This document shows positions 14,940-18,680 of a DNA stretch of 64,000 nt, one piece after another (the stretch's first letter is position 1; the number at the start of each line of letters is the position of its first letter). The position numbers and the translations under genes are program-made. The notes under the pieces were generated by a model that worked only from the letters and a program-made list of their open reading frames with translations, did no database searches and had not been told where the DNA came from. The DNA is taken from positions 1-64,000 of the IMG/VR virus record IMGVR_UViG_3300042914_003231; one strand, given 5' to 3'. The DNA is from a virus. Its lineage: Duplodnaviria > Heunggongvirae > Uroviricota > Caudoviricetes.

Positions 14940-15011
14940 ATGAAACTGTTTTTCTTATCGTTTAGTTGTTTATGGTATCTCTCACAAGGAGGCAGCCCGG
15001 GCATTTCATGA
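14940..15011 (+). CDS. leader ORF 1, 23 codons: MKLFFLSFSCLWYLSQGGSPGIS
   Basis: ATG lies 4 nt after the -7 box. Residues 3-15 use only F, L, S, C, W and Y, the amino acids of the next 8 tRNAs. A terminator follows 36 nt after the stop. Confidence 0.5.
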   Translation: MKLFFLSFSCLWYLSQGGSPGIS

Positions 15012-15047
15012 TAGGTTTTTCATAGTTAAACATGATTAATTGACAAA

Positions 15048-15079
15048 ATCCCTGGGCTGATTACCCGGGGATTTTTTTT
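15048..15079 (+). terminator. intrinsic terminator immediately before tRNA-Phe
   Basis: 9-bp stem ATCCCTGGG/CCCGGGGAT with a 7-nt loop and T8. Confidence 0.8.
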
Positions 15080-15151
15080 GGACTCATAGCTCAGTAGGTA
15101 GAGCGCAGGACTGAAAATCCTGCCGCACTGGTTCGATTCCAGTTGAGTCCA
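15080..15151 (+). tRNA. tRNA-Phe (GAA)
   Basis: Acceptor GGACTCA/TGAGTCC; D GCTC/GAGC; anticodon arm CAGGA-CTGAAAA-TCCTG; T arm ACTGG-TTCGATT-CCAGT. Confidence 0.92.
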
Positions 15152-15156
15152 CACAA

Positions 15157-15239
15157 GCCGACACTGTAGAGTGGGAGATCTACACCAGACTGTAAATCTG
15201 GAGTCTTAGACTTTGGGAGTTCGAATCTCTCTGGCGGCA
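15157..15239 (+). tRNA. tRNA-Tyr (GTA), long variable arm
   Basis: Acceptor GCCGACA/TGGCGGC (one mismatch); arm CCAGA-CTGTAAA-TCTGG; T arm GGGAG-TTCGAAT-CTCTC. Confidence 0.85.
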
Positions 15240-15244
15240 CAAAA

Positions 15245-15330
15245 GGAAGGTTGGCAGAGCCTGGCCGATTGCACCAGTCTTGAAAACTGGAGGTCCCTTG
15301 GATCCGTGAGTTCGAATCTCACACCTTCCT
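15245..15330 (+). tRNA. tRNA-Ser (TGA)
   Basis: Acceptor GGAAGGT/ACCTTCC; arm CCAGT-CTTGAAA-ACTGG; long variable arm; T arm GTGAG-TTCGAAT-CTCAC. Confidence 0.9.
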
Positions 15331-15390
15331 CAACATGCATAGAAAAATGCACTTTTCTATACATGTTTTTTGAAAGTGCATAAAAACTAT

Positions 15391-15431
15391 ACATCTCTAG
15401 CTCAACTGGCGGAGCAGCGGTCTCCAAAACC
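15391..15431 (+). pseudogene. truncated tRNA-Trp-like 5' portion (acceptor 5' strand to anticodon loop only)
   Basis: D arm GCTC-AACTGGCG-GAGC and loop CTCCAAA. Shares the 13-mer GGTCTCCAAAACC with the intact tRNA-Trp (15419-15431 versus 15834-15846). No T arm and no 3' acceptor complement. Confidence 0.6.
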
Positions 15432-15464
15432 ATAAAGCAGTTTGGATACTGAAGTAAAAACATG

Positions 15465-15472
15465 TATATTTG
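15465..15472 (+). promoter_or_regulatory. -7 box TATATTTG, 3 nt before ATG 15476
   Basis: Matches TAnnTTTG. Confidence 0.45.
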
Positions 15473-15475
15473 TAC

Positions 15476-15817
15476 ATGCCTTCAAAAAATAAAGAAATAC
15501 TAAAAAAGCATAGAGATGCTTGGTATAAAAAGAATAAAAAAAAACAGATTACTAACCAGCTTGAAAAAAGACAGGAATTAAAGAAATGGTTTCAGGAATA
15601 TAAGAGATCATTATCTTGTAAAGAGTGTGGATTTAGCTTTGAATTATTTCCAGAATGTTGTGATTTCCATCACAGAGATGGAGATACAAAGAAAGATGTA
15701 GTAAGCAGATTGCTACCAATGGGAATAAAAGCACTAAAGAAAGAGATTGAAAAATGTGATCCTCTTTGTGCTAATTGTCATAGAAAGCTCCATGCAAAAT
15801 TAGAATATACAGGTTAG
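15476..15817 (+). CDS. HNH homing endonuclease (free-standing, inside the tRNA array)
   Basis: CKECG...CCDFHHRDGDTKKD...CDPLCANCHRKLH is an HNH/zinc-finger motif. The stop codon lies inside the tRNA-Trp 5' end. Confidence 0.8.
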   Translation: MPSKNKEILKKHRDAWYKKNKKKQITNQLEKRQELKKWFQEYKRSLSCKECGFSFELFPECCDFHHRDGDTKKDVVSRLLPMGIKALKKEIEKCDPLCANCHRKLHAKLEYTG

Positions 15818-15880
15818 CTTATTGGAAGCACCAGGTCTCCAAAACCTCGGATGGAAGGAGTTCGATTCTCTTAACCTGTG
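15809..15880 (+). tRNA. tRNA-Trp (CCA)
   Basis: Acceptor ACAGGTT/AACCTGT; D GCTT/AAGC; loop CTCCAAA; T arm AGGAG-TTCGATT-CTCTT. Confidence 0.85.
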
Positions 15881-15885
15881 CACAA

Positions 15886-15957
15886 GGTACCGTGGGTGAG
15901 GGGTTTAGCCTCAGGTCTGCAAAACCTGCTACGTCTGTTCGAATCAGACCGGTACCT
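15886..15957 (+). tRNA. tRNA-Cys (GCA)
   Basis: Acceptor GGTACCG/CGGTACC; arm CAGGT-CTGCAAA-ACCTG; T arm GTCTG-TTCGAAT-CAGAC. Confidence 0.92.
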
Positions 15958-15958
15958 C

Positions 15959-16174
15959 ATGAAAGAGATAGATGAAGAGTTCAACTTACTTCAGTTGTAC
16001 ATCTATGATTGCATCAACCGGATGTGTTTGAATGCATACATAGATAAGACTAAGTGTTCTCATCACCCTTTGTATACTTTTGAAGAATACAAAACGGCAA
16101 TATGGGATCCTTGGACTGGAGAGACTGTAGCAAGTAGAACAAGATGGGCTTTAAATATTAAGCCTTTATTTTAG
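15959..16174 (+). CDS. hypothetical protein, 71 aa, flush between tRNA-Cys and tRNA-Ser
   Basis: The ATG lies 2 nt after the tRNA-Cys discriminator. The stop TAG (16172-16174) overlaps the tRNA-Ser start (16173). The track ORF 15878.. was trimmed to the first ATG outside the tRNA. Confidence 0.5.
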   Translation: MKEIDEEFNLLQLYIYDCINRMCLNAYIDKTKCSHHPLYTFEEYKTAIWDPWTGETVASRTRWALNIKPLF

Positions 16175-16257
16175 AGAAGTGGCTGAGTGGCTTAAGGCAC
16201 CGCACTGCTAACGCGGAGGATGTAACAGTTCCACCGGTTCGAATCCGGTCTTCTCTG
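16173..16257 (+). tRNA. tRNA-Ser (GCT)
   Basis: Acceptor AGAGAAG/CTTCTCT; loop CTGCTAA; long variable arm; T arm ACCGG-TTCGAAT-CCGGT. Confidence 0.88.
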
Positions 16258-16262
16258 CAAAT

Positions 16263-16343
16263 GCCCATATGGTGGAATGGTAGACGCGCTGGTCTTAGGA
16301 ACCAGTACCGTAAGGTATGTAGGTTCGAGTCCTACTATGGGTA
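16263..16343 (+). tRNA. tRNA-Leu (TAG)
   Basis: Acceptor GCCCATA/TATGGGT; arm CTGGT-CTTAGGA-ACCAG; long variable arm; T arm GTAGG-TTCGAGT-CCTAC. Confidence 0.9.
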
Positions 16344-16348
16344 CATAT

Positions 16349-16431
16349 ACTCCTGTGGTGTAATTGGTAGCCGCGCTAGGCTTAAGACTCAGTGGACTTA
16401 GTCCGTGCCGGTTCGAGTCCGGCCAGGAGTA
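16349..16431 (+). tRNA. tRNA-Leu (TAA)
   Basis: Acceptor ACTCCTG/CAGGAGT; loop CTTAAGA (weak anticodon stem); variable stem GGACT/AGTCC; T arm GCCGG-TTCGAGT-CCGGC. Confidence 0.8.
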
Positions 16432-16474
16432 CTTTGCTCACCTGATTAATAAAGTGACCAAAAATTATTACACT

Positions 16475-16520
16475 GTCTACCAATCAGTTAGACCTTCTGA
16501 AGAAAATATTTTTGGTAGAC
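16475..16520 (+). other. 9-bp stem-loop at the end of tRNA block 1
   Basis: GTCTACCAA (16475-16483) pairs with TTGGTAGAC (16512-16520). The 3' arm overlaps the -33 TTTG of the next promoter. Confidence 0.5.
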
Positions 16521-16542
16521 TCAAACAAACCTATTATATTTG
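16511..16542 (+). promoter_or_regulatory. promoter: TTTG (-33) N20 TATATTTG (-7)
   Basis: TTTG at 16511-16514 and TATATTTG at 16535-16542. Confidence 0.6.
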
Positions 16543-16550
16543 TCTTGCAA

Positions 16551-16652
16551 ATGAAACGCATACAACATATCCAGATGGCCAATACAGGCAGAAATACGGT
16601 GGAGATTAAAGATCCGACCGTGTCCATGGGTGTTGCATGTAGTTTTAGATAA
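16551..16652 (+). CDS. leader ORF 2, 33 codons: MKRIQHIQMANTGRNTVEIKDPTVSMGVACSFR
   Basis: ATG lies 8 nt after the -7 box. Residues 2-24 use only the 14 amino acids served by the 16 downstream tRNAs, and all 14 occur. A terminator follows 28 nt after the stop. Confidence 0.5.
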   Translation: MKRIQHIQMANTGRNTVEIKDPTVSMGVACSFR

Positions 16653-16680
16653 GACATTTTTAGTTAGCTAAACCGCATTA

Positions 16681-16710
16681 AACCCCTGGACAAGTTCTAG
16701 GGGTTTTTTG
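16681..16710 (+). terminator. intrinsic terminator immediately before tRNA-Pro
   Basis: Stem (AA)CCCCTGG/CTAGGGG(TT) with a 7-nt loop and T6. Confidence 0.8.
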
Positions 16711-16718
16711 TTTTACCC

Positions 16719-16791
16719 CGGGATGTAGATCAGTTGGTAGATTGCGTGCTTTGGGAGCATGAGGTCGCAGGTTCGAGCCCTGTCATCCCGA
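16719..16791 (+). tRNA. tRNA-Pro (TGG)
   Basis: Acceptor CGGGATG/CATCCCG; arm CGTGC-TTTGGGA-GCATG; T arm GCAGG-TTCGAGC-CCTGT. Confidence 0.9.
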
Positions 16792-16847
16792 CTAGCAGAA
16801 GTGGTACTCCAGTGCCCGTACTGAAAACCAAACAAAACTGGAGACAT

Positions 16848-16920
16848 GGGGTTCAAGCACAAGCGGACGTGCATTAGCTTTGCAAGCTAGAGGATCTCGG
16901 TTCGAGGCCGAGGAGCTCCA
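16848..16920 (+). tRNA. tRNA-Ala (TGC)
   Basis: Acceptor GGGGTTC/GAGCTCC with a G3:U70 pair; D GCAC/GTGC; arm TTAGC-TTTGCAA-GCTAG; T arm CTCGG-TTCGAGG-CCGAG. Confidence 0.88.
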
Positions 16921-16921
16921 C

Positions 16922-17083
16922 ATGAATGAAGAACTATATAATTGGCTGGAGAAGATGTTTATGTTCTCCAATATCCCTAAGTACAGGAAGTACTTTAAGG
17001 AATGGGTGGACAACATAACTGAAGATCAGATCACCGGTTTTCAGAGAATGATGGGAGCCAACTATAAGATTAAGCAGGAATAG
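16922..17083 (+). CDS. hypothetical protein, 53 aa, flush between tRNA-Ala and tRNA-Gly
   Basis: The ATG lies 2 nt after the tRNA-Ala discriminator. The stop TAG (17081-17083) lies inside tRNA-Gly, which starts at 17074. Confidence 0.5.
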   Translation: MNEELYNWLEKMFMFSNIPKYRKYFKEWVDNITEDQITGFQRMMGANYKIKQE

Positions 17084-17148
17084 CTCATCCTTGGTAGAGC
17101 TCCAGTCTTCCAAACTGGAGGTGGCGAGTTCGAGCCTCGCTTCCTGCT
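17074..17148 (+). tRNA. tRNA-Gly (TCC)
   Basis: Acceptor GCAGGAA/TTCCTGC; arm CCAGT-CTTCCAA-ACTGG; T arm GCGAG-TTCGAGC-CTCGC. Confidence 0.92.
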
Positions 17149-17331
17149 CACAACTGCAGTGCCCATGTACAGTGGGGGTACAATCACTGCAGGTAGAAGA
17201 GTGCTAAGAAATCCGGTGTTGGGTTAGCTCTGGACACTAAGGTAAGGAGTGGGTAAGGACCACAGTCCCCGTCTAACAGGGACAAAGTTTTGCAAAAGCC
17301 TTCCCTGGGATGGAGCACTCTTCATGATATT
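17149..17331 (+). ncRNA. structured non-tRNA spacer RNA (unknown family)
   Basis: 8-bp hairpin CTGCAGTG/CACTGCAG (17154-17192). 10-bp long-range helix GAAGAGTGCT (17196-17205) with AGCACTCTTC (17314-17323). Inner hairpin GTCCC...GGGAC. GC-enriched; no cloverleaf. Confidence 0.4.
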
Positions 17332-17407
17332 GGTCTGTTAGGGGAGTCCGGCCGTCCCTACCTCACTGTCTATGAGGGGATCACGGGTTCGAATCCCGTA
17401 CAGACCG
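17332..17407 (+). tRNA. tRNA-Asp (GTC)
   Basis: Acceptor GGTCTGT/ACAGACC; arm CCTCA-CTGTCTA-TGAGG; T arm ACGGG-TTCGAAT-CCCGT. Position 37 is an unusual T. Confidence 0.78.
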
Positions 17408-17518
17408 CTGGGCGGTAGTCTAATGAGCAGGGTTAGTAGCGTGCTGACTAACTAGTCTTAGGACGATCATCTTATGGGATGATAGATATCAGTAACCATT
17501 CTGATCTGCCCCACCAAT
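17408..17518 (+). ncRNA. second structured non-tRNA spacer (unknown)
   Basis: Hairpins ATCATC-ttatgg-GATGAT and ATCAG-taaccatt-CTGAT; ends ...CTGCCCCACCA; repeated TAGTCT(A/T)A. Confidence 0.3.
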
Positions 17519-17590
17519 TGCCCCTTAGCTCAGCGGTAGAGCAAAACCCTGTTAAGGTTGAGGTCCTAGGTTCAATCCCTAGAGGGGCAG
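17519..17590 (+). tRNA. tRNA-Asn (GTT)
   Basis: Acceptor TGCCCCT/AGGGGCA; loop CTGTTAA; T arm CTAGG-TTCAATC-CCTAG. Confidence 0.9.
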
Positions 17591-17595
17591 CAAAT

Positions 17596-17670
17596 AGACG
17601 AGTAGCTCAGCCTGGTTAGAGCGCCCGCCTGATACGCGGAGGGTCACAGGTTCAAATCCTGTCTTGTCTA
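17596..17670 (+). tRNA. tRNA-Ile (GAT)
   Basis: Acceptor AGACGAG/CTTGTCT; loop CTGATAC; T arm ACAGG-TTCAAAT-CCTGT. Confidence 0.88.
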
Positions 17671-17727
17671 CTTTGGGACCGTTTGGTAGTGACATAGTCT
17701 TGAACTAGATCATAGAAACTATCACAT

Positions 17728-17800
17728 AGGAGTATAGCTCAGTTGGGAGAGCATCCGGTTTACATCCGGACGGTCCAAGGTTCGAGTCCTTGTATTCCTA
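17728..17800 (+). tRNA. tRNA-Val (TAC)
   Basis: Acceptor AGGAGTA/TATTCCT; arm TCCGG-TTTACAT-CCGGA; T arm CAAGG-TTCGAGT-CCTTG. Confidence 0.9.
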
Positions 17801-17884
17801 CAAACTTTAAAGATTTAAACTTATAATGTTTACACTATTAAAATATAAGGTTATAAAGAGAAGGATAAAACCTTAACTCATTAT

Positions 17885-17956
17885 TCCCTCATAGCTTAGT
17901 GGTAAAGCAGTATACTTTTAATATACGGAGCGGCAGTTCGATTCTGCCTGGGGGAA
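17885..17956 (+). tRNA. tRNA-Lys (TTT)
   Basis: Acceptor TCCCTCA/TGGGGGA; arm GTATA-CTTTTAA-TATAC; T arm GGCAG-TTCGATT-CTGCC. Confidence 0.9.
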
Positions 17957-17962
17957 CTTTAA

Positions 17963-18034
17963 ACCCCCGTAGCTCAATGGAAGAGTAAGAGACTTCTAAG
18001 CTCAAGGTTACCAGTTCGAGTCTGGTCGGGGGTT
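17963..18034 (+). tRNA. tRNA-Arg (TCT)
   Basis: Acceptor ACCCCCG/CGGGGGT; loop CTTCTAA (short GAG/CTC stem); T arm ACCAG-TTCGAGT-CTGGT. Confidence 0.82.
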
Positions 18035-18040
18035 CTGAAT

Positions 18041-18114
18041 AGGCCCTTAGCTCAGTTGGTTAGAGCAGTACTCTTATAAGGTAAAGGTCACCGGTTCAAA
18101 CCCGGTAGGGCCTA
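18041..18114 (+). tRNA. tRNA-Ile (TAT), reads ATA
   Basis: Acceptor AGGCCCT/AGGGCCT; loop CTTATAA; T arm ACCGG-TTCAAAC-CCGGT. Confidence 0.85.
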
Positions 18115-18124
18115 CATAATATTT

Positions 18125-18199
18125 AGCGGGGTGACTGGAGTTGGTTCCAGCACAGCCTCATAAACTGTACAGACGCGGGTTCGAGTCCCGCCCCCGCTA
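18125..18199 (+). tRNA. tRNA-Met (CAT), elongator-like
   Basis: Acceptor AGCGGGG/CCCCGCT; loop CTCATAA; T arm GCGGG-TTCGAGT-CCCGC. No 3xG:C initiator signature in the anticodon stem. Confidence 0.85.
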
Positions 18200-18265
18200 C
18201 AATGAGTGCTAATGACACCTGATAAAGGAGGGGATATATTACCAGGTCCCCCGACACTCAGTAAC

Positions 18266-18337
18266 GCTCCCATCATCTAGGGGTCAGGATATCAGGTTTT
18301 CGACCTGAGCACCAGGGTTCGAATCCCTGTGGGAGTA
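18266..18337 (+). tRNA. tRNA-Glu (TTC)
   Basis: Acceptor GCTCCCA/TGGGAGT; arm TCAGG-TTTTCGA-CCTGA; T arm CAGGG-TTCGAAT-CCCTG. Confidence 0.9.
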
Positions 18338-18342
18338 CTTAA

Positions 18343-18415
18343 GCTTGAGTAGCACAATTGGTAGTGCACCTCCCTTGTAAGGAGAAGGTTGTCAGTTCGA
18401 GTCTGACCTCAAGCT
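18343..18415 (+). tRNA. tRNA-Thr (TGT)
   Basis: Acceptor GCTTGAG/CTCAAGC; D GCAC/GTGC; loop CTTGTAA; T arm GTCAG-TTCGAGT-CTGAC. Confidence 0.9.
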
Positions 18416-18417
18416 CT

Positions 18418-18491
18418 GTGTCTGTAGAGGAATTGGTAGACTCCCCGGAATGTGGATCCGGTGCTTGTGGGTTCAAGTCCCATCAGACACC
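18418..18491 (+). tRNA. tRNA-His (GTG)
   Basis: Acceptor GTGTCTG/CAGACAC; arm CCGGA-ATGTGGA-TCCGG; T arm GTGGG-TTCAAGT-CCCAT. The only tRNA followed by an encoded CCA. Base -1 is T, not G. Confidence 0.88.
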
Positions 18492-18497
18492 CCATTA

Positions 18498-18571
18498 GTT
18501 CTCATAGCTCAATTGGATAGAGTCCTTGACTACGGATCAAGAGGTTGAAGGTTCGACTCCTTCTGAGAACA
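18498..18571 (+). tRNA. tRNA-Arg (ACG)
   Basis: Acceptor GTTCTCA/TGAGAAC; arm CTTGA-CTACGGA-TCAAG; T arm GAAGG-TTCGACT-CCTTC. Confidence 0.92.
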
Positions 18572-18576
18572 CATAA

Positions 18577-18647
18577 TGCCCTTTCGTCTAACGGCAGGAC
18601 CTGTGGTTTTGGGCCACATGATCGAGGTTCGAATCCTTGAGGGGCAA
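18577..18647 (+). tRNA. tRNA-Gln (TTG)
   Basis: Acceptor TGCCCTT/AGGGGCA; arm TGTGG-TTTTGGG-CCACA; T arm CGAGG-TTCGAAT-CCTTG. Followed by a T-run. Confidence 0.9.
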
Positions 18648-18680
18648 CTAGTTTTTTATTGTTTGCACATCCAAAGTTTT

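Follow-up and report, generated by a model that had tools for sequence, protein, structure and literature searches.

Can the enzymes that mature tRNAs also set the ends of protein-coding mRNAs in a virus of bacteria? The question is raised by a 64,000-nucleotide (nt) stretch of viral DNA, positions 1 to 64,000 of IMG/VR record IMGVR_UViG_3300042914_003231 (this whole stretch being 'the window' below), in which a distant crAss-like phage carries an array of 24 tRNA genes on its plus strand at 15080-18648 (called by ARAGORN and confirmed by Rfam), with three open reading frames (ORFs) wedged between tRNAs. In mitochondria, under the model of Ojala, Montoya and Attardi, tRNA-processing enzymes define mRNA ends, and the original prediction saw a mitochondria-like punctuation of all three ORFs in the interval 15809-17083. 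The answer offered here is a divided one. Punctuation is kept as a proposal for two small ORFs, ORF1 and ORF2, which have tRNAs on both sides; it is not supported for the third, an HNH endonuclease ORF that has no punctuating 5′ tRNA, follows a promoter-like box instead and belongs to a mobile cassette. The array itself falls into two sub-arrays, of 8 tRNAs (15080-16431) and 16 tRNAs (16719-18647), and the proposal that these are two tRNA operons also carrying protein genes is given about an even chance of being right.

All the coordinates first given for the borders of tRNAs and ORFs hold, whether judged by ARAGORN, by Rfam, by reading of the sequence or by scripted acceptor-stem pairing; the tRNA ends reported by ARAGORN include nucleotide C74, so that the true discriminators lie one base earlier. 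The discriminator of tRNA-Cys(GCA) (15886-15957, like every feature below on the plus strand; ARAGORN, Rfam and pairing) is U at 15957, C74 is 15958, and the ATG of ORF1 (71 amino acids, 15959-16174) falls at tRNA position 75, 2 nt past the discriminator. Its TAG, 16172-16174, occupies nt -1 to +2 of tRNA-Ser(GCU), which starts at 16173, and so overlaps that tRNA by 2 nt. The same layout recurs at tRNA-Ala(UGC), whose discriminator is the A at 16920 and whose C74 is 16921, the ATG of ORF2 (53 amino acids, 16922-17083) being again at position 75; here the last 10 nt of the ORF are nt 1-10 of tRNA-Gly(UCC) (17074-17148), whose acceptor stem encodes the ORF2 C-terminus and whose U8-A9-G10 is the ORF2 stop codon, TAG at 17081-17083. 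A single nt, C74, thus parts discriminator from ATG in both cases, and the two start codons sit exactly where the usual 'CA' trailer begins. The HNH ORF (113 amino acids, 15476-15817) ends in a TAG at 15815-15817 that is nt 7-9 of a tRNA-Trp starting at 15809. By anatomy, removal of the upstream tRNA would, as had been claimed, leave ORF1 and ORF2 with an essentially leaderless mRNA (0-1 nt of leader), and RNase P cleavage at the downstream tRNA would take away the stop codon of all three ORFs.

Are the small ORFs genes at all? That they are unexpressed, being chance frames or decaying remnants in tRNA spacers, could be argued from their shortness (53 and 71 amino acids), from the lack of any Pfam or PHROG family above threshold and from the absence of ORF1 in several relatives. 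The variation says otherwise. Sixteen homologues of ORF2, at 70-100% identity and, as values of 70-92% show, not assembly duplicates of one sequence, were found, and in a codon alignment of seven lineages the ratio of nonsynonymous to synonymous substitution rates (dN/dS) is 0.06-0.27 with synonymous sites saturated, variable columns being distributed 17/14/40 over the three codon positions. For ORF1, with two homologues at 72% identity, the distribution is 22/16/43, with a dN of about 0.2 and a dS exceeding 0.86. Homologues of both families also occur in ordinary gene contexts outside tRNA arrays: that of ORF1 in L004-L006 (handles of this form denote related sequences) lies in an ordinary operon beside a uracil-DNA-glycosylase-family gene with no tRNA nearby, and that in L003 lies again between tRNA-Cys and a Ser(GCU)-like tRNA. 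While ORF1 is polymorphic among relatives, ORF2 is present in all ten lineages, and its AlphaFold model is a confident bundle of three helices (predicted local distance difference test, pLDDT, 87.8); that of ORF1 is poor (pLDDT 50). By evolutionary criteria ORF1 and ORF2 are real, translated genes, non-expression is hardly credible, and the possibility on which the original prediction would have foundered, that nothing would speak for translation of the small ORFs, is removed by the third-position variation and low dN/dS. What their products do is another matter. No nuclease or other family match was found in Pfam or PHROGs, nor for ORF2 with Foldseek: Pfam gave the two families a sub-threshold DUF7746 only (E = 0.005-0.016, 6 of 13 members), PHROGs matched neither ORF, the distant ORF2 homologue P0015 having one sub-threshold hit to a family of unknown function, and Foldseek of the ORF2 model against the PDB returned no match.

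The precision of the junctions is best seen against the other tRNAs. Across 11 arrays with 142 tRNAs (the window, L001, L003, L007, L012, L013, L019-L022 and L024), 138 tRNAs have C at position 74, 100 have A and 38 have T at position 75, and encoded CCA occurs in none of the 142, a pattern that suggests a specific determinant for 3′ processing or for RNase P. Spacers between tRNAs are typically 5 nt long and of the form CAnnn, with a range of 2-10 nt in the window. Elsewhere among these tRNAs C74 followed by ATG occurs at one L007 junction only, and there the following tRNA begins with the G of that ATG. In ten lineages (the window, L012, L021, L022, L001, L024, L019, L020, L013 and L007) the ORF2 junction, ...CTCCA-C-ATG with its 1-nt gap, and the 10-nt overlap with tRNA-Gly are both invariant; other spacers in these lineages vary from 5 to 438 nt (Pro-Ala 54-438, Asp-Asn 5-112, Ile-Val 5-72, Asn-Ile 5-70). 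Because C74+ATG is so rare, and the ORF2 gap and overlap are identical in the ten lineages, the layout is beyond chance. The tRNA-Ala of L013 and of L007 was missed by ARAGORN and Rfam and yet can be folded into a cloverleaf that has the G3:U70 identity pair. At the other end, the ORF2 C-terminus follows the tRNA-Gly acceptor stem as it changes (GCAGGAA giving QE, GCAGAAG QK, GCAGAAA QK, GCGGGAA RE and GCAAGAA QE). As to the stop codons, TAG ends all three embedded ORFs, as against TAA in 28 of the 33 window ORFs of at least 180 amino acids (TGA 3, TAG 2), and TAG stands at nt 8-10 in 81 of the 142 tRNAs; the stops are therefore borrowed from the tRNAs.

How ribosomes would reach such start codons depends on the host. 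Matches to PHROG families were obtained for the large terminase, the portal and the major head protein, and the terminase shares about 24% identity with its counterparts in crAss-like phages of the gut, in phages of Flavobacterium and Cellulophaga and in an Azobacteroides phage; blastn found no close DNA-level relative among deposited phages, the matches being at tRNA level only. Window G+C is 36.7%. A Shine-Dalgarno (SD)-like core precedes 1 of the 33 large ORFs, and A makes up 50% of the 20 nt before genes. SD-independent initiation with A-rich upstream sequence is the pattern of the Bacteroidota (PMC6847099), so a member of that phylum is the most likely host. Upstream of ORF1 and ORF2, a G+C-rich tRNA stands in place of the A-rich leader of other genes. 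A GAGGAG in the window tRNA-Ala was considered as a ribosome-binding site and discarded, not being conserved (it is absent from L001, L019 and L013), as was an internal promoter inside tRNA-Ala or tRNA-Cys, neither having a TAnnTTTG box. Promoter-like site P3 (16511-16542) precedes a leader ORF, leader 2, which is dealt with below. Between P3 and the end of the array the pattern search gave no promoter-like motif, and between P3 and tRNA-Gln no terminator was seen beyond leader 2's own. The sampling by leader 2 of the complete set of 16 tRNAs, Pro to Gln, points to a single transcription unit that includes ORF2.

The expression route put forward here, on which we stand evenly divided, is that ORF1 and ORF2 are co-transcribed with the tRNAs, that 3′ maturation of the upstream tRNA exposes a 5′-terminal AUG and that RNase P removes the stop codon. 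Within the tRNA precursors in which the ORFs would be transcribed, the AUG would be buried against folded tRNA-Cys or tRNA-Ala until the 3′ end of that tRNA is cut, and a cut after N73 or C74 would yield an mRNA with a leader of 0-1 nt. Ribosomes of a host independent of SD sequences would enter this mRNA from its 5′ end, as the leader ORFs would also need them to do, and RNase P action at the downstream tRNA would turn it into a stop-less and short-lived one. Since the AUG abuts one tRNA and the stop lies inside the next, translation and maturation of the flanking tRNAs would be mutually exclusive on one molecule; full-length translation would, per molecule, have to follow upstream 3′ maturation and precede downstream RNase P cleavage, and protein output would be tied to, and capped by, tRNA processing. 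The competition or temporal ordering originally predicted would thus follow from the anatomy. A host without SD use, together with leader ORFs that are themselves leaderless or nearly so, makes the 5′-terminal AUG route plausible. The first 45 nt of both mRNAs are nearly unstructured, in this no different from shuffled sequences and so weak evidence.

Several considerations weigh against this route. In E. coli, RNase P alone separates the clustered tRNAs of several operons, and exonucleases trim the trailers; if the host processes its tRNAs in that manner, the RNA of the ORFs would be a trailer to be degraded and not a released mRNA. For RNase Z of B. subtilis, moreover, C74 is reported to be unfavourable. 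Among more distant genes of the ORF2 type, the gap on the 5′ side is 4 nt in L028/L033, to an element that is tRNA-like but weak (Rfam 28.7 bits), 14 nt in L016-18, to tRNA-Cys, and 20 nt in L030, to a tRNA-like 3′ end, and others lie away from tRNAs; exact abutment is therefore not required by the protein family. The invariance of the 3′ overlap of ORF2 is partly trivial, any indel there breaking either ORF or tRNA. Transcripts with 5′ untranslated regions shorter than 10 nt make up only about 3.7-5.5% of those of Bacteroidota (PMC7366714, PMC9723704). Finally, co-transcription, the cleavage sites, initiation of leaderless type and the fate of the cleaved mRNA are all deduced from sequence.

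Two other explanations would accept the genes and deny significance to some or all of the junctions. One is compaction alone, in which deletion bias has squeezed the ORFs against the tRNAs, initiation is internal, on unprocessed or transiently unfolded precursors, and processing merely destroys some of the mRNA. Phage genomes are compact, as the 2-10-nt spacing of tRNAs here attests; for an ORF that reads through into a tRNA, the chance of meeting its stop in a TAG at nt 8-10 is about 1 in 3; the L003 copy of ORF1 keeps a TAA of its own 3 nt before the Ser-like tRNA, the window copy resembling a 5-nt deletion of such an arrangement; and the distant homologues function with spacers of 4-20 nt or with no tRNA. 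Compaction would account for the captured stops and the close packing. Deletion bias does not account for the failure of any insertion between C74 and ATG to become fixed in ten lineages whose other spacers have lengths of 5 to 438 nt. The AUG, moreover, lies directly against the acceptor/T-arm helix, within the footprint of a ribosome on mRNA, and for ORF1 and ORF2, which have neither a conserved SD sequence nor an A-rich leader, the loading of ribosomes beside a folded tRNA is left unexplained. Compaction as the whole explanation is accordingly judged unlikely, without being negligible. The other explanation is negative control alone, on the model of phage T4 segB, in which the overlaps serve to keep expression very low by way of RNase P and the position of the start is without significance. 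Control of this kind was put forward for T4 segB as well as for F-TflI, F-TflII and F-TflIV of T5 (PMC2330249), and it would suit the HNH ORF, whose product is potentially toxic. ORF2, however, is no selfish nuclease, being present in every lineage under strong purifying selection, and, whereas segB has a leader of 41 nt, the start junction is the most conserved feature here; negative control as the sole explanation is improbable, distinctly more so than compaction. Release of ORF1 and ORF2 mRNAs by tRNA 3′ maturation is for these reasons the reading retained.

How far do the precedents extend? With mitochondrial punctuation the array shares the flanking of ORF1 and ORF2 by tRNAs of the same strand, with spacers of 0-1 nt, and the prospect that tRNA excision would leave an essentially leaderless mRNA. 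It differs at the other end, where complete TAGs lie in or across the downstream tRNA and cleavage would destroy the stop, instead of leaving T or TA to be completed by polyadenylation as in mitochondria (RNase P would leave ORF1 alone with a terminal U, from which the addition of A residues could restore a stop). It differs also in scale, with two or three genes among 24 tRNAs, and in belonging to a bacterial virus with promoters and terminators of its own. By analogy, then, the arrangement is mitochondria-like on its 5′ side only; the abutment originally likened to that of mitochondria is borne out there, and the likeness fails on the 3′ side. The nearer relatives of the embedded ORFs, judged by the same kind of comparison, are the ORFs of phage tRNA clusters, T4 segB and T5 F-Tfl. 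T4 segB lies in a tRNA precursor transcript, its start region is described as including an SD sequence, and a maturation cut at its stop codon was proposed to limit expression, loss of the stop through tRNA maturation being proposed also for F-TflI, F-TflII and F-TflIV, which are T5 endonucleases (all PMC2330249); stop-codon loss by this means is therefore not new. In the T4 RefSeq annotation segB starts 41 nt past tRNA-Ile and ends 5 nt before tRNA-Arg, with rnaC and rnaD in the cluster. Shared with these systems are an ORF among same-strand phage tRNAs, the insertion of a homing endonuclease and, as a possible counterpart of the T4 stable RNAs, a conserved spacer RNA. Not shared with segB are the abutment of the AUG on a tRNA at position 75 and the identity of the products, two of the three ORFs not being nucleases and ORF2 being fixed across the lineage. 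Endonuclease identity, common to segB and the F-Tfl genes, holds here for the HNH ORF alone, and presence is polymorphic for the HNH ORF and ORF1, not for ORF2.

That HNH ORF matches PHROG HNH endonuclease families at E = 1e-21 and carries the HNH motif; its homologues are free-standing and in unrelated contexts. Just upstream lie the first 41 nt of a resident tRNA-Trp (15391-15431, by alignment to L001 and L012), broken just past the anticodon loop, and then promoter-like site P2 (15441-15472), with the ATG 3 nt past its box. Intact tRNA-Trp of the resident type is found in L001 (612-685) and L012 (88-161), both of which lack the HNH ORF and have tRNA-Ser(UGA) and tRNA-Trp 3-4 nt apart. The tRNA-Trp(CCA) in which the HNH ORF ends (15809-15880; Rfam 30.8 bits against a gathering score of 29) is a replacement with a different acceptor stem. 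Its sequence and the remnant have only 13 nt, GGTCTCCAAAACC, in common, which are likely to be a recombination or target site. On sequence grounds the HNH ORF is a mobile homing-endonuclease cassette, of predicted activity and with its own promoter-like box, that broke the resident tRNA-Trp and brings a substitute, segB being by analogy the closest precedent (PMC2330249). The HNH motif, polymorphic insertion in a conserved gene and linkage to a substitute for the broken target place the cassette among the free-standing HNH homing endonucleases of phages. These include those of the T4 mob genes and Aeh1 mobE, and the cassette differs from them in that its apparent target is a tRNA anticodon stem-loop and that the substitute tRNA carries the endonuclease's stop codon.

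Transcription of the array appears to be governed by elements that are more novel than the embedded ORFs. The 64-kb window was searched on its plus strand with a Bacteroidota promoter pattern, TTTG-N(17-23)-TAnnTTTG, and of four occurrences three, P1, P2 and P3, are within the array, with an ATG 4, 3 and 8 nt past the box respectively (at P3, 5-6 nt in relatives). As the sigma-A box occupies -12 to -5 in Flavobacterium (PMC9723704), the predicted 5′ end of the transcript would coincide with the start of the leader or HNH ORF concerned or lie no more than about 4 nt from it. P1 (14904-14935), of the form TTTG-N20-TAtaTTTG and of Bacteroidota sigma-A type, has the A of the ATG as its predicted start and is followed by leader ORF 1 (23 amino acids, 14940-15011; MKLFFLSFSCLWYLSQGGSPGIS), whose codons 3-15 are all drawn from those read by the 8 tRNAs of sub-array 1. 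Its core, TTA TCG TTT AGT TGT TTA TGG TAT CTC, encoding LSFSCLWYL, covers all eight (Leu-UAA, Ser-UGA, Phe, Ser-GCU, Cys, Trp, Tyr and Leu-UAG) in nine consecutive codons and is kept in the window, L001, L007 and L003 with synonymous differences only. The window's own genes, with 13,685 codons, served as the background: their longest stretch of group-1 codons is 6, where the leader has 13 (P about 4e-8 per position), and nine-codon windows covering all eight tRNAs number 0 among 13,421 real and 0 among 2 million simulated. Leader ORF 2 (33 amino acids, 16551-16652; beginning MKRIQHIQMANTGRNTVEIKDP) uses in its first 22 codons all 16 tRNAs of sub-array 2, including both Arg-ACG and Arg-UCU and both Ile-GAU and Ile-UAU, and none of sub-array 1; 22-codon windows made up of group-2 codons and covering all 16 number 0 of 12,992 real (the best covers 12) and 0 of 2 million simulated. 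The order of residues in leader 2 varies among lineages and the composition is constant, with 14 amino acids within about 20 codons and no F, Y, S, W, C or L. In L013, alone among the lineages, tRNA-Pro lies upstream of leader 2, and the leader segment has no Pro codon. The ATA codon is kept in the leader of the window and of relatives alike, although the slot that in the window (18041-18114) holds a tRNA-Ile with anticodon UAU holds a CAU tRNA in L001 (2388-2460) and L012 (2381-2453), which is probably a lysidine-dependent Ile2.

Each leader ORF is followed by a terminator-like hairpin with a U-run, and each contains a segment able to compete with it. Hairpin 1 (15045-15079; -18.1 kcal/mol, z = -4.5) abuts tRNA-Phe, and hairpin 2 (16680-16714; -19.9 kcal/mol, z = -4.9) comes within 4 nt of tRNA-Pro. 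Antiterminator segment 1 (14993-15001, CAGCCCGGG) has its partner at 15051-15059 (-14.2 kcal/mol against -7.4 for shuffled sequences); in modelled nascent RNA it pairs with the 5′ arm of the terminator, and the pairing is lost once a ribosome covers codon 20 or beyond. Segment 2 (16621-16634) has its partner at 16681-16692, and across seven lineages its partner sequences change together with the terminator arm. The arrangement of leader 1 with its terminator is found also in L001, L007 and L003, and the order from leader to terminator is conserved in 12 leaders. In all 12 the 5′ arm of the terminator pairs with ORF nt 54-82 when the modelled ribosome is at codon 15 or earlier, and in all 12 the pairing falls to 0-5 bases with the ribosome at the stop codon; cognate arm duplexes average -13.7 kcal/mol against -9.6 for non-cognate ones, and the duplexes of 10 out of 11 leaders surpass at least 96% of shuffled sequences. 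The elements in relatives are at L001 228-356 and 1094-1251, L007 2701-2836 and 3649-3827, L003 3431-3570, L012 976-1126, L021 343-503 and L013 412-572, and are present also in L022, L024 and L025; leader element 2 of the window (16511-16714) falls within the interval flagged at the outset. A DNA pattern search for copies of leader 1 returned a known contig and one chance match in a coding gene only, and in two unrelated arrays (L030, L033) no leaders were evident.

The leaders thus show what sequence can show of an attenuator: a promoter-proximal ORF enriched in relevant codons, a terminator before the first gene and a predicted alternative pairing dependent on the ribosome. Structure prediction and codon statistics make it probable that they are ribosome-mediated attenuators of the tRNA operons. 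A ribosome would stall at a leader codon when the charged tRNA is scarce, leaving the antiterminator free, and transcription would then pass the terminator adjoining the first tRNA; rapid translation would mask the antiterminator, and transcription would stop. The phage would in this way make its tRNAs, ORF1 and ORF2 only when the decoding capacity of the cell falls, a fall that could stem from late-gene demand, host shut-off or anticodon-nuclease defences. The further step, that attenuators and true tRNA punctuation of ORF1 and ORF2 together form a self-regulating tRNA supply module, is taken tentatively. Within sub-array 1, the HNH insertion, with its own promoter and an AT-rich terminator-like hairpin and T-run just 3′ of tRNA-Ser(UGA) (15332-15371; -12 kcal/mol, z = -3.9), probably uncouples tRNA-Trp to tRNA-Leu, with ORF1, from attenuator 1; L001 and L012 have no such hairpin, their Ser(UGA)-to-Trp spacer being 3-4 nt.

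Leader-peptide attenuators are classically those of the trp, his, leu, thr, pheA and pheST operons of enterobacteria. Common to them and to the present elements are a short promoter-proximal ORF with related codons, a terminator before the first gene and, by prediction here, an alternative pairing governed by the ribosome. The differences lie in what is controlled, namely tRNAs with ORF1 and ORF2 as opposed to biosynthetic or aminoacyl-tRNA synthetase genes; in the leaders, which have roughly one codon for each of 8 or 16 downstream tRNAs in place of a repeat of a single amino acid; and in the leaderless or near-leaderless leader mRNA and the setting in a Bacteroidota phage. Searches of the literature found no precedent for a leader-peptide attenuator of tRNA operons.

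The remaining elements of the array are for the most part tRNAs, and their distribution between the sub-arrays is orderly. Sub-array 1 consists of the tRNAs for the amino acids of UNN codons, Phe, Leu, Ser, Tyr, Cys and Trp, with their CUN and AGY isoacceptors, and of no others; sub-array 2 carries all the others, and jointly the 24 decode every sense codon except CGG under simple wobble rules. tRNA-Phe(GAA), tRNA-Tyr(GUA) and tRNA-Ser(UGA) occupy 15080-15330, with 5-nt spacers beginning CA, and tRNA-Ser(GCU), tRNA-Leu(UAG) and tRNA-Leu(UAA) occupy 16173-16431 (both sets by ARAGORN, Rfam and pairing). In L001 the tRNA-Ser(GCU) slot (762-850) holds a non-canonical tRNA-like sequence with a GCU loop that ARAGORN and Rfam miss, and the tRNA-Trp of L003 (3830-3913) and of L007 (3102-3185) is 84 nt long with a long variable arm. 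Sub-array 2 begins with tRNA-Pro(UGG) and, after a conserved 56-nt spacer, tRNA-Ala with its G3:U70 pair (together 16719-16920); the spacer, 16792-16847 (54-56 nt, found also in L001, L012, L021 and L024), opens with CTAGCAGAA, which is conserved, and has a CTCCAG/CTGGAG hairpin within it. From tRNA-Gly to tRNA-Asp there runs a conserved structured spacer RNA of the same operon (17149-17331; 170-183 nt in an alignment of nine lineages: the window, L012, L021, L022, L001, L024, L019, L020 and L013), with an invariant core AAGGAG..AAAGCCTT and compensatory changes at 13 of 24 predicted pairs; it may, by analogy, correspond to the T4 stable RNAs rnaC and rnaD, and an Rfam scan gave no match for it or the other structured spacers. 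The remaining 13 tRNAs, Asp to Gln, are at 17332-18647 (ARAGORN, Rfam and pairing). Between Asp and Asn an element of 111 nt (17408-17518; L012 1810-1921, L021 1183-1293) folds as a tRNA-like multi-branch closed by a GGGCGG/CTGCCC stem. In L012 and L021 it has a hairpin resembling a T-arm, and its end, ...CCCCACCA, is the sole encoded CCA-like end in the array; it was not called by tRNA finders, and alignment of the Asp-to-Asn spacer gave no consensus structure. Recoding of TAG as sense, common in crAss-like phages, was considered and for now rejected, no suppressor tRNA being called and the large ORFs being intact with the standard code, with this tRNA-like element as a caveat.

If 3′ maturation of tRNAs does make ORF1 and ORF2 translatable, mitochondrial tRNA punctuation would have a counterpart in a virus of bacteria. 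Leaderless mRNAs would then arise by a natural route in a phylum whose ribosomes do without SD sequences, and there would be a conserved case in which RNase P and a 3′-processing enzyme determine when an mRNA comes into being and when it is lost. In significance, the leader peptides weigh more than the embedded genes. Among ideas on the control and retention of phage tRNA arrays, a debated one is that they counter tRNA-depleting defences or the decay of host tRNAs. If the attenuator reading is true, it extends attenuation from amino-acid operons to tRNA genes and from leaders for single amino acids to a multiplexed panel of codons, a design that could serve synthetic biology. A leader that samples every tRNA encoded downstream would be, for the phage, a built-in sensor of decoding capacity.

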